A stretch of 64,000 nucleotides of DNA, taken from assembly GCA_000004695.1 (NCBI GenBank), contig CM000151.3, positions 4,480,001 to 4,544,000 of the forward strand. Direction: 5' to 3'. The position numbers and the translations under genes were made by a program. Each line of letters begins with the position of its first letter. Within the stretch, counting starts at the first letter, position 1. This document shows positions 33,889 to 41,351 of the stretch, piece after piece. The stretch is from Dictyostelium discoideum (Eukaryota). The notes beneath the pieces were generated by a model. It made no database searches. It saw only the letters and a program-made list of their open reading frames with translations, and was not told the origin of the DNA.

Positions 33889-36210
33889 ATGAAATTAGTT
33901 TTTATTTTTATACTTTCAATATTGTTTTTTTATATAAAACAAATTGAATCATTAACTGGTACAGTAACATTAGTTGAAGATAATTACTCTCATATTCAAT
34001 TTTGTAGGCCAACTTTTTTTGTAAATGTTACTTCAAGTGAAATGTTAAGTACCTTATATTTTAGGGATTTAAATGGTGTAACTAATGGACCAATATTTGC
34101 AGAGACATATCGGGAATTTATCAGTCCTAATTATTATCTTTCAGGATACCTTACAAGTGGTTTTTATCAACCAAATCCAATTAGCACATTGCATGCCCAA
34201 GATTCACAATATGGAAATGAACAGAATATTCAAGCAGATATTAGTTATGTTTGTGAATTGCCACCAGTTATTAATATTACCGAACCTGTTTGCATCAATT
34301 TAAAACCACTCAAATTAGAGACAACATTTTATGTCTATGTTGAAAATTTAAAAAAGAGAATTCAACTCATTGATAGTATAAATCCATCTACTTCATCTCC
34401 TTTTTCACTATTATTCATTAGCTCTGAACCATATTTCTTAAAGTTTAATTTAATTTTTGAACATTCAAATAAAGGTGCAATTATAAAATCAGAGTTTCTT
34501 ACATTTCATTTAACATATGATGTATTGACAAATTTTACATTAAATATTGTACCACCAATTAAATGTAAGTTTTTATTATTATTATTTTTATTTTTCTTTT
34601 ACAAAAAAATAAAATTACTAATATTTAATTTATTATTTATTTTATTTTAGATAATATAAATAGTGAACTTCTTAAAATTTCTCAATACCCAAGTACTTCA
34701 TATACTACATCGAATAATTGGGATATTAATAATATGGTTTTTATTAAAGGTTCAAATATTGATCAAAATTTATTTTTATATGGTCTTTATAATTCAACTA
34801 GTATCTTTGATAAAAATCAATTTTTCTCTTTAGTTTCTGGAAATAATACCAATGGAAAATTTTTGTTTGTGTCCTCTTCTTTTCCAGTAAATAGAGATTT
34901 AACTCCATCCACAATAAATTTCAATCTTTTTGACTATGGTAACCAAAGTAATTTTGATGATTCTTCTATTACAAATGATGGTAATTATTATTATTATTAT
35001 TATTATTATTATTATTATTATTATTATTATTATTATTATTATTATTATTATTATTATTATTATTATTATTATTATTATTATTATTATTTCTTTTTAATAT
35101 TATTATTAATTAATTTTTAAAATTTAAACTTTTAGCTATTTTATCTAATTTTGTTAATTTAGGTGCTCTAGAATATACTACACCATTTAAATGGAATAAT
35201 TTTTATTTTACTTGTAAATATCCAGATGATTATAAATTATCTTTAAAGTTTGGTTTAAATAATTATTTTTCACCTATTTATCCATTTGGTTTAATGAAAT
35301 TAAGTACTGATGGAAGTTGTAAATTTGATGTAAGTACTTTAAATAAGGATAAATTTTATTTATTATTATTGTTATATAAAATTAAATTTATTAATATTGA
35401 TTAATTTTTTAAAAGTTTAAATGGGCTAAAGGATCAAATGAAGTTACACTTTTATCAGATACAGGTCATAGATATTATTATCCACCAACTACAAGTGCTG
35501 ATGCATCTAAACCAACTTTTGTTGATTTTCAATTATTTTATCCAAGAGGTGGTGATGGAAATTATGCAATATTAAGCGCACATATTATTGATTCTGGTTC
35601 TGGTTTCTCATTTTTATACTATGGTGGAAATTATATAACAGCTGCAGATTTAATAAATGGTACAATTAATGATGGTTTTTATGAAAAATTAATATATGTA
35701 ACATTTGATACCACATGCCGAATTGGTGATATTGATTCAAACATTGATTTATGTAATCCTGATCCTTCCAATCAAAACATTAAATTTTATTATGGTTTAA
35801 ACCCATCAGATTTTATACCTTATTTAGTTGGTAAATATTTTTTTTTATTTTTTATTTTATTTTTAATAATATTAATTTTTAATAATATTAATTTTATTTG
35901 TATTTTATTTTTTTTATATAAATTAGATACTGATTTTGAAATTACAAGATTTGATTTTGAAAGTTCAGTTTATGATATATCGGAATCTGGTAAATTAGTA
36001 ACATTTTATTTAAATTATTCAAAAGCTCAATCAGATATTCCAATTTCTTTCTTTTTAACAGATAGAAATTATGGTGATAAATATATTGATATAAATAGTA
36101 AATCAAATCGTTATTTAATGGATAAAGATTTAAATTTATTTAAAATCACATTTTATATCCCACCAAAATTATGTACTGGTACCTTACCATTTTTAATTTC
36201 ACTACAGTAG
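33889..36210 (+). CDS. Secreted protein, the N-terminal half of an EGF-like/transmembrane family gene. Exons are 33889..34564, 34651..34980, 35136..35329, 35416..35830 and 35927..36195+. The reading frame runs into the transposon TIR and stops at 36208-36210.
   Basis: Signal peptide MKLVFIFILSILFFYIKQIES. Introns are bounded by t|GTAAGT…ttttag|, g|GTAATT…(TAT)n…ttttag|, gat|GTAAGT…aaaag| and g|GTAAAT…aattag|, with all phases consistent. The last exon reads …YIPPKLCTGTLPFLISLQ*, where 'ISLQ*' is encoded by the TIR itself. Confidence 0.55.
34984..35089. repeat. (TAT)n microsatellite inside intron 2 of the secreted-protein gene
   Basis: Directly visible. It follows a GTAATT donor and precedes a ttttag acceptor. 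Confidence 0.85.
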
Positions 36211-38968: not shown

Positions 38969-41351
38969 AAATTCCCTACAACAATCATTATTCATGGTAA
39001 ACAATTTAGAAATGATTACTTTTATTCAAAATTTGGTGATCAAGCAAATTTAAATGTATTTTCAAATGGTATGTTTAAAAAACTATTTAAATTTAATTTT
39101 TTATATTATTTTTTTAAACTATTAAATTAATATTCTGGTTCTAATTTTTTTTTTTTTTTTTACTTAATTTTTTATAGATTGTTTTGAATTTCCACCAAGA
39201 GTTTCAAATTTAACTTTATTATCTAGTAATAGCGTTACATTAAACTCTAATCAAACTATTGGATGGGAAATTGTAATTGATAGTGGTGGTGGTATTAAAA
39301 TTAGTTATGTATTTATACATGTAATTTCAAATTTAGATAAAAAAGGATACACATTTGAATTCTATCCAAACTCTACCTCATGGGAAACCACAATTGGAAT
39401 TGCTCTATCACCAGAAACAACACCATCACAAATATTTAAAATTTATAATGCAACTATTATTGACGAAAGAGGAATTAGATCGGACCATATTGATAGTTTT
39501 AAAGTTGATGAAATTTTTTCAAATCAAAGTCCAATTTATCCAATTTCAATTTCACCATTTTATTTATTTGATCTTAGTTTATTTAGCATAACAGTTAATT
39601 CACCATTCATTACTGAATCTGTTCCACCAACAATTACACTTGTAACCCTACCATTTGAAAATGTAGATGATTTTTTACAATATTCAATTTTCTTTCAATT
39701 AGTGTCAACTGATAATGTTGGTATATTAAAAAGCCATATACCACAAGTTTATTTATCGCATTCATCAAACTATGGAGATTTACAAATTTTCCAATGTAAT
39801 ACAGCTATTAATGATACGTCTGAAACAACTTGTAATTATTATGTTACTTGTAAAGTTGAATATGGTTATGGTATTCAAAACCCTGTATCTGTTTTAGTTT
39901 ATGGTGTTGTTGATACTAGTTTCAATGTTGCAAGCTATAGTAGTTTAAGTGAATCCCAAACCTTTGATTTTAATGGTCTTTCCAATAAAAAAACACCTTC
40001 AATTTCAAGTTGGACACCATTAACACCATATAATAATAAATTAACAATTTTTGGTAGAAATTTCCCAACATCAGGTGGAAGTGCTTATTTATATTATACA
40101 GATAGTGATATTGATAATTTAGTAACTTTGAAATTTATTCATTCATCATCTGTAATGGCAGTTTTAGAAATTGGACAAGGTTTAAAACCATTTGTAGTTT
40201 ATACTCAAAATTCAAATAATGAAAAATCTAATAAAGTTGAAATTCATTATTTAGGAATTCCAACATCTTCTTCATCCTCATCTTCATCATCAGATGATGA
40301 TTCAACATTACCACCAGTTTTATGTTTTGATAATTGTGGTGGAACATCAAGAGGTACTTGTATTCCAAATGTTGGATGTAATTGTAAATCACCATATAGT
40401 GGTATAAATTGTCTTTCTGAAACAATTAAAATTCCAAAACCTCAAACAAATACAACATCACCAGATTCAAGAAATGAATTCCCTATTAGTGGTTCAGATA
40501 TTAAACTAAATACAATCATTTCAATTGTAGCATTAAGAGAATTAGATTTTCAAGGTAAACAGGTTAATATTCATTATTTTGATAGTTGGAATTTTACAAC
40601 AATATCTCAAACCAATTTCACATATAGATCACCAATTTTAAAAAACAATCAACATGTTTCAAATATATCAGTAGCAATGGAATGGCATGAACAATCTACA
40701 ACTATTACATTTGCAAAACAAAATCTCACAATTAATCCATCAACTTTGAAATATTATATTTCATTAGATAAATACCCATTTGCATCATCATTAAATACAC
40801 TTGATTTAATCATTAAATCAATGTTTAAAAGTTCACAAACTGATGATGTATGTGGCAGTAAAGGATTTTCATTAAATGATGGAAATGATTATATGACATT
40901 ACAAATTGGAACATACTCATTTGAAGGTAAATTTATAAAAAAAGCAATTATCAATGGCAATAGAATTGTAACAATAAATAATAAATTATTAAATGAAAAT
41001 CAACTAAATAGTAATTCAACTATAACTAAAGAAAAAGATTCATCAAATCAACTTTCATCCTTTATCTCAATTGAAATACCTCATTATGATTCAAATGTAT
41101 TATTAGATCCAAGTTTTTCAGTTTTATTAGATTCAAATGAATCATATAAAAACTCTGAAAATTCAATTTGTACTTCAAAAAAATCCTCAAAACTTACTAC
41201 CGCTCAAATAATTGCTATTGTTATTGTTTCTGTAGTTTTTGTAATAATTCTAGCTCTCTTTATAATCGTTAAATTTTCAAAATCTGATAAATTTTTATCT
41301 ATAAGAATTTTCTATTATAAATTATTTAAACGATTTAAGAAAAAGTATTAA
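38969..41351 (+). CDS. EGF-like domain / single-pass transmembrane protein, the C-terminal half of the gene split by the transposon. Exons are 38969..39068 and 39178..41351.
   Basis: The open frame begins right after a TGA at 38966-38968, next to the right TIR. It reads FPTTIIIHGKQFRNDYFYSKFGDQANLNVFSN, then a g|GTATGT donor and ttttatag| acceptor lead into …CFEFPPRVSNLTLL… An EGF-like Cys pattern follows (CFDNCGGTSRGTCIPNVGCNCKSPYSGINC), then a C-terminal TM helix (IIAIVIVSVVFVIILALFIIV) and a short cytoplasmic tail. There is no signal peptide or ATG of its own; the listed 'M' at 39702 is a GTG. Confidence 0.55.

Follow-up and report, generated by a model that had tools for sequence, protein, structure and literature searches.

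Are the two adjacent genes DDB_G0274923 and DDB_G0274925 of Dictyostelium discoideum strain AX4 genuine, separate genes, or are they the two ends of one gene that was split by the DNA transposon lying between them? The question arises in a 64,000-nucleotide stretch of chromosome 2 of AX4 (contig CM000151.3 of assembly GCA_000004695.1, positions 4,480,001 to 4,544,000 of the forward strand; hereinafter, the window, to which all coordinates refer unless another locus is named), in which a copy of the transposon Tdd-4 separates a gene part with a signal peptide from a gene part with a membrane anchor. We conclude, with a probability of roughly 0.9, that this Tdd-4 copy inserted into exon 5 of a single gene of the ComC family in the lineage leading to AX4. 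As judged from the flanking gene DNA, which is identical to that of an empty-site allele, the insertion is very recent.

A single ComC-family gene and its empty site

The 5' part of the host gene (33889..36195, plus strand) consists of five exons (33889-34564, 34651-34980, 35136-35329, 35416-35830 and 35927-36195) that are separated by GT-AG introns and, according to the splice model and its translation, are read in a clean frame from the ATG at 33889 to codon L628 (TTA), with which the first portion of exon 5 stops at 36195. This part codes for a hydrophobic, signal-like peptide followed by a DUF7743 domain (Pfam). Beyond L628, the frame enters the left repeat of the transposon and is closed by the TAG at 36208-36210 (...CTGTLPFL-ISLQ*), just as the original prediction, which was made from the sequence alone, had described it. 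The 3' part (38984..41351, plus strand) comprises the remainder of exon 5 (38984-39068) and exon 6 (39178-41351); its frame is spliced once (39068/39178), ends at 41351 and encodes, in this order, DUF7035, DUF7034, the epidermal growth factor (EGF)-like DUF7949, the ComC supersandwich domain, a transmembrane (TM) helix and a short tail. The hydrophobic C-terminal stretch reads AQIIAIVIVSVVFVIILALFIIV in the sequence, and both the EGF-like module and the terminal helix that had been predicted downstream of the single splice are accordingly found. The 3' fragment has neither a native start codon nor a signal peptide. Intron 2 of the host gene (34981-35135) is composed mostly of a perfect (ATT)n microsatellite of about 100 nt.

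Excision of 36196-38983 joins the two parts as CCA TTT TTA ATC ATT ATT CAT (P F L I I I H) and yields a stop-free coding sequence of 4,143 nt, or 1,380 codons, contrary to the earlier claim that precise excision fails to restore the frame. The restored protein contains a signal peptide, DUF7743, DUF7035, DUF7034, the EGF-like module, the ComC supersandwich domain and the TM anchor. It is the same as the product of an intact allele (P0041), the first 628 residues of which are identical to the product of the 5' part. All five Pfam matches of P0041 are over their cut-offs (ComC_SSD, 49.7 bits; DUF7949, 29.4 bits; DUF7034, 52.9 bits; DUF7035, 43.8 bits; DUF7743, 41.9 bits). With the ComC domain, the EGF-like module and the C-terminal TM anchor on a single polypeptide, the host protein belongs to the ComC family. 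Like the ComC/LagD surface proteins of Dictyostelium, the intact protein combines the ComC supersandwich domain, DUF7035, DUF7034, the EGF-like DUF7949 and a TM anchor; it is a different member of the family, and the literature searched contained no experimental study of DDB_G0274923 or DDB_G0274925.

The intact allele comes from assembly GCA_054883475.1 (locus L004), where a single 4,675-bp gene encodes the restored 1,380-amino-acid (aa) protein and shows 0 mismatches to the window segments 33889-36195 and 38984-41351 joined together. Over 16.7 kb, about two real mismatches separate this locus from the window, together with differences in homopolymer length. A syntenic locus with ~94% DNA identity (L001), with phosphofructokinase (PFK) upstream and COQ9 downstream as in the window, has the empty site CCATTTTTAATCATTATTCATGG, and the empty site is found also in the Logan read assemblies SRR28564540 and SRR26869266 (contigs L005 and L006), the former of which represents a different isolate given its seven real single-nucleotide polymorphisms in 3 kb. 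The empty site sequence is TTTTTA|ATCAT|TATTC, and the block 36196-38983 is absent from each of these loci (L001, L004, L005 and L006).

A search with the fused protein recovered proteins of 1,378-1,388 aa without interruption, with a query coverage of 99-100% and an identity of 94% in another assembly labelled D. discoideum, 70% in D. dimigraforme and 65% in D. firmibasis; further intact proteins of 1,377-1,380 aa, which fall in the same cluster as the AX4 halves, are encoded in other assemblies. Across the insertion site, the orthologues read ...KLCTGTLPFL|IIIHGKQFRNDYF... and ...LPFL|IIIHGKQF..., and the alignment is collinear through ...LPFLIIIHGKQF..., with five additional residues, KFPTT, in the window. 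The proposal of one ancestral type I membrane protein gene that was split by an element in an exon is thus upheld by the empty-site comparison, both with the intact allele and with the orthologues.

Element termini and the truncated left junction

The ends of the element were located by comparison with other copies. In two of these (L002 and L003), the terminal repeat starts 24 nt beyond TTTCACTAC, at 5'-TGTTGTAGGGAATTTTCAATAAAA (TGTTGTAG...), and in L003 both ends are full and flanked by a perfect 5-bp duplication, TCATC. The right terminal inverted repeat (TIR) of the window copy is complete (38839..38983, plus strand; 145 nt, ending ...CCCTACAACA-3', or 5'-TGTTGTAGGG on the other strand); its full tip occupies 38960-38983 (other strand) and closes as ...CTACAACA at 38983, the canonical ...CA. 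The TIR of Tdd-4 is reportedly ~145 bp long (Wells 1999, Nucleic Acids Res 27:2408). The left TIR (36196..36318, plus strand) is truncated and, in an alignment of five termini, lacks the outer ~24 nt (TGTTGTAGGGAATTTTCAATAAAA).

Inverted terminal repeats around an element of ~2.8 kb had been proposed and are present. The right boundary that was implied at the time, 38961, is incorrect, the true end according to the other copies being 38983, and the KFPTT residues and the in-frame TGA at 38966, which had been taken for gene sequence, are part of the outer tip of the right repeat. A symmetric arrangement of the ends, in which the element extends to 38959-38961 and is flanked by a TTTTA or AAT duplication, was rejected: excision then produces a frameshift and an early stop, and the other copies show 24 nt more of the repeat.

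Directly next to the right end lies ATCAT (38984..38988, plus strand), the retained right copy of the expected 5-bp target-site duplication (TSD), which also provides codon I629 (ATC) and the 2 nt that follow. The insertion point falls between codons L628 and I629, inside exon 5 and between DUF7743 and DUF7035; insertion into an intron, the alternative considered in the original prediction, does not apply. Only the right ATCAT is whole, and the left junction keeps at most 2-3 nt of the TSD, the AT at 36196-36197 being ambiguous between a remnant of the left duplication and repeat sequence. The left junction in the AX4 window reads ...CCATTTTTAATTTCACTAC..., compared with ...TTTTTAATCAT-TGTTGTAGGG... 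for an untruncated junction. A canonical insertion (…TTTTTA-ATCAT-TGTTG…ATAAAA-TTTCAC…) minus one 28-nt deletion gives the present left junction exactly, and this deletion has four equivalent placements, which implies a 3-nt microhomology (AAT). The earlier suspicion that the target-site structure could be more complex than it seemed was well founded, with the right end complete and the left end short of 24 nt of the repeat and of part of the duplication.

Each arm of the element contains two copies of a 23-mer, TTTCACTACAGTAGCGTAGTGAA, located on the left at 36197-36219 and 36233-36255 (overall 36197..36255, plus strand) and, as mirror copies, on the right at 38901-38923 and 38937-38959. These four matches are the only ones in the window, with 0 expected by chance. 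The 23-mer is a small palindrome (TTCACTAC N7 GTAGTGAA), the copies of which are spaced 36 nt apart, and we consider these sequences to be candidate transposase-binding sites. The left truncation ends exactly at the outer copy of the 23-mer; speculatively, this limit might reflect protection of the DNA by bound transposase.

A deletion derivative of Tdd-4

The element (36196..38983, with the transposase on the minus strand) is a 2,788-nt, internally deleted copy of Tdd-4, with the left (3') terminus truncated as described above. Its truncated transposase gene (37026..38656, minus strand; exons 38656-38553, 38468-38233, 38153-37919, 37851-37603, 37534-37228 and 37151-37026, the last one including the stop) contains five introns, all of them GT-AG, and encodes a 418-aa product with an HHCC zinc finger and a DDE (rve) core. 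The Pfam score for Integrase_H2C2 is 33.1 bits (cut-off 25.5), and those for rve (28 bits) and rve_3 (23.8 bits) are both just under their cut-offs. The motifs CIDSF, HCDNGREF and GMVERLN are legible in the protein, and its relatives have precomputed rve matches, in agreement with the integrase-type open reading frame (ORF) that had been predicted here and that runs on the minus strand.

The element protein is 91-99% identical to the Tdd-4 proteins of D. discoideum. Closest to it are D. discoideum proteins 693-708 aa in length, with 91-92% identity; AX4 DDB_G0292352 (P0006) is 99% identical over 47% of the query, and DDB_G0282919, which is entered as 'Tdd-4' in a dictyBase-derived table (PMC12405889), is 93% identical over the covered part, which identifies the element as Tdd-4. 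Bao, Kapitonov & Jurka (2010; PMC2836005) assigned this transposon to the Ginger2/Tdd group; according to the same source, its TSD is 5 bp and its reference copy is 3,839 bp long. The window copy shares with Tdd-4 the integrase-like transposase with an HHCC finger and a DDE core encoded in several GT-AG-spliced exons, and 93-99% aa identity to the AX4 Tdd-4 proteins over the covered parts; the 145-nt TIR with TG...CA tips is complete at its right end only, and the whole 5-bp duplication is seen in an intact copy, L003. It differs from Tdd-4 in being 2,788 nt long compared to the 3,839-nt reference, in the deletion of the SPXX-containing C-terminal region between A-runs, and in the loss of 24 nt from the outer end of one repeat, with the duplication no longer intact. 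Tdd-5 belongs to the same group as Tdd-4 and shares with it the host and the 5-bp TSD (PMC2836005). A second Dictyostelium family (P0007 and P0008), which is probably Tdd-5, is only 45-48% identical to the window transposase and has no KSPS-type repeats. Tdd-5 is said to have been described by Glockner et al. in 2001.

The internal deletion junction was mapped to an A-run at 37037..37047 (minus strand) by alignment with the L003 copy and comparison with P0004, P0005 and P0006. Between ...INSLQKK and MIEELIDS, ~290 aa of coding sequence are missing, including the SPXX repeat region, and the junction runs from A-run to A-run (CTTCAAAAAAAAATAAAAAAAAATAAAACTT). In the full-length relatives P0004, P0005 and P0006, this block of ~290 residues contains a tandem SPXX run of the (K/F)SPS type. 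Such SPXX repeats, a putative DNA-binding domain, are reportedly a hallmark of Tdd-4 (Wells 1999); owing to the internal deletion, the window copy has no such C-terminal region. Judged by its sequence, the window copy is a deletion derivative, ~1 kb shorter and without a complete transposase, that is not autonomous; L003, the only complete copy available for comparison, carries additional insertions.

The 3' coding segments of Tdd-4 that are retained in the window copy (36555..36954, minus strand) encode MIEELIDSIKLLRNLAIEYGNEE* and then a 102-aa ORF (36555-36863). Both are conserved in Tdd-4 and have no Pfam match; the same segment forms the terminal part of AX4 DDB_G0292352, where it is spliced to the transposase, and is a separate gene call in L003 (8021-8419). 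The L003 copy itself (2722-8790 of that locus, in GCA_054883475.1) is 6,069 bp long, with ~0.75 kb more than the window copy in the 5' region and ~0.7 kb more inside the transposase gene, which suggests nested insertions or expansions. The other Tdd-4 copies retrieved, those of L002 and L003, adjoin retroelement genes (RVT_1/RT_RNaseH/rve; 7366-10481 in L002, 282-1877 and 9689-10884 in L003), a setting that fits transposon-rich clusters, with the window copy standing alone in a gene.

Proposed origin of the insertion and predicted consequences

The features of the two junctions suggest a history in which Tdd-4, a cut-and-paste element with an integrase-like DDE transposase, entered exon 5 between L628 and I629 and was joined to the host DNA at a 5-bp staggered cut. 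Because ~290 codons, those of the SPXX region among them, are missing from this copy, the transposase would have acted in trans; such a source is plausible, given that AX4-derived cells transcribe Tdd-4 ORFs, with strong de-repression in an rblA mutant (PMC3386910). A 28-nt loss at the left junction would then have removed the outer 24 nt of the repeat, along with 3 nt of the ATCAT duplication and 1 further nt. This loss might have been part of an aberrant integration, in which the transposase joined one end and microhomology-mediated end joining of the host sealed the other, or it might have followed shortly after the insertion, for example, through abortive excision. A single aberrant event appears slightly more economical because the flanks have no substitutions. 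One-ended or 'fractured' insertions, with a terminal deletion left by host end joining, have been reported among other DDE transposons and among retroviral integrations that went awry. The AX4 insertion resembles them in that one end is canonical and the other truncated, the target duplication is incomplete, and the deleted junction shows microhomology. The difference is that, in the present case, the mechanism is only proposed from the sequence, and a deletion after insertion would leave the same sequence.

The BioProject of these assemblies includes one laboratory strain, AX2-214, which is 99.5% identical to AX4 at another locus, all wild isolates being diverged (PMC12745789); for these reasons, we infer that GCA_054883475.1 is AX2-214. 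A more specific version of the history outlined above would then place the insertion in the laboratory lineage AX3/AX4, after its split from AX2 and within decades, by aberrant one-ended integration of a non-autonomous Tdd-4 copy that was mobilised in trans. We advance this version tentatively, at somewhat less than even odds.

Several points weigh against the proposed course of events. The identification of GCA_054883475.1 as AX2-214 comes from the near-identity to AX4 and from the strain content of the BioProject, not from the record of the assembly, and the sequence is compatible with loss of the 28 nt at integration as well as after it. Furthermore, an exact look-up of the AX4 junction ORFs (51 and 30 aa) in the Logan assemblies found none on record and thus no independent contig with the AX4 junction, which leaves a small probability that the reference is wrong at the left junction. 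Tdd-4 is a multi-copy element, with >10 copies (PMC2836005) and 19 annotated ORF entries (PMC3386910), so that reads could in principle have been collapsed or mis-joined. Nevertheless, we consider an assembly artefact in the AX4 reference, whether behind the whole interruption or at least behind the truncated left junction, very unlikely. At the right junction, the canonical ...CA abuts the target pentamer, a biologically exact arrangement; unique sequence is reached within a few hundred bases of either junction; and the failed look-ups carry little weight given that short-read assemblies break in repeats and rarely call ORFs of 30-51 aa. It is similarly quite improbable that AX4 retains the older state, with the insertion already present in the NC4 ancestor and lost from AX2 by precise excision. 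AX2 and AX4 do have a recent common ancestor, and the near-isogenic empty alleles examined amount to one only, but the empty site of that allele is, base for base, the one seen in contigs L005 and L006 from wild isolates, and at the junction it also agrees with the diverged L001. Moreover, excision of cut-and-paste DDE elements usually leaves a duplication or a footprint, and the window copy, with neither its left terminus nor a full transposase, is very unlikely to have excised cleanly.

The annotation of AX4 implies yet another interpretation, namely, that the two halves are separate functional genes, each with its own start and stop: the 5' part is annotated as DDB_G0274923 (623 aa, ending LISLQ) and the 3' part as DDB_G0274925 (748 aa; P0042), and both halves remain ORFs. 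We find this scarcely credible. All other genomes examined have one gene at this locus, and zero substitutions compared to the intact allele leave no time for two genes to re-evolve, an observation that also disposes of the earlier idea that the locus had decayed or re-evolved as two transcription units. The stop of the first model comes from the transposon repeat, and the second model starts with an ATG inside the transposon: its annotated first exon (MIVL-; 38521..38534, plus strand) is antisense to the transposase, and its intron (38535-39009; 475 nt) is drawn across the right terminal repeat. P0042 is exactly reproduced from these coordinates, and this start and intron are most likely a gene-prediction artefact. 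In addition, a signal peptide is absent from the second product, which nonetheless includes the ectodomain of a membrane protein. Thus, DDB_G0274923 and DDB_G0274925 are fragments of one gene, and the two models are to be merged or flagged as a disrupted gene. A relative-rate test for decay gave 25 aa changes in the window lineage vs 23 in the P0001 lineage, that is, no excess, and is moot because a 100% identical allele exists. The DDB_G0274923 model uses a different acceptor after intron 2 than P0041 and our model do, and the residues AILSNFVNL are therefore dropped from it.

With a single ComC-family gene split by Tdd-4, AX4 is predicted to make, at best, a secreted fragment of 632 aa that consists of 628 native residues and ISLQ from the repeat, and that would be devoid of the EGF-like module, the ComC domain and the anchor. 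The element itself is probably immobile because it lacks one terminus and a full transposase. This is an ordinary transposon knock-out, a known kind of event caused by a known transposon family, and it leaves the knowledge of the family itself unchanged. The locus nevertheless provides a clean, datable case of recent Tdd-4 mobility, and its non-canonical junction could inform on the interplay between integrase-type DNA transposons and host end joining. As the gene is intact in what appears to be AX2-214, a null allele of a ComC-family surface protein seems to set apart the two laboratory backgrounds in widest use, a difference to be considered in comparative work on adhesion or developmental signalling. 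Should the insertion indeed have occurred in the laboratory lineage, Tdd-4 would be active in standard laboratory strains, and the reference strain would be a natural null for this gene, which would make the locus a candidate contributor to phenotypic differences between AX2 and AX4.

The gene at 62146, which had been suggested as an uninterrupted paralogue, is not supported as one: it shows no tblastn similarity to the host protein (E<=0.01) and has no Pfam match, and tblastn with the host protein detected no similarity elsewhere in the window either. The part of this gene that lies inside the window (62146-64000) starts with a signal-like peptide, and the absence of a Pfam match applies to this part. 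Downstream of the host gene, a block of ~3 kb (41578-44565) is absent from L001 (10832-10837) and present in L004; the ORFs within it are all short (122 and 169 aa, minus strand) and have no Pfam match. The sequence of the window is extremely A+T-rich. Upstream of the host gene, the neighbouring PFK ORF (30635-33139) corresponds exactly to the AX4 protein DDB_G0274111.

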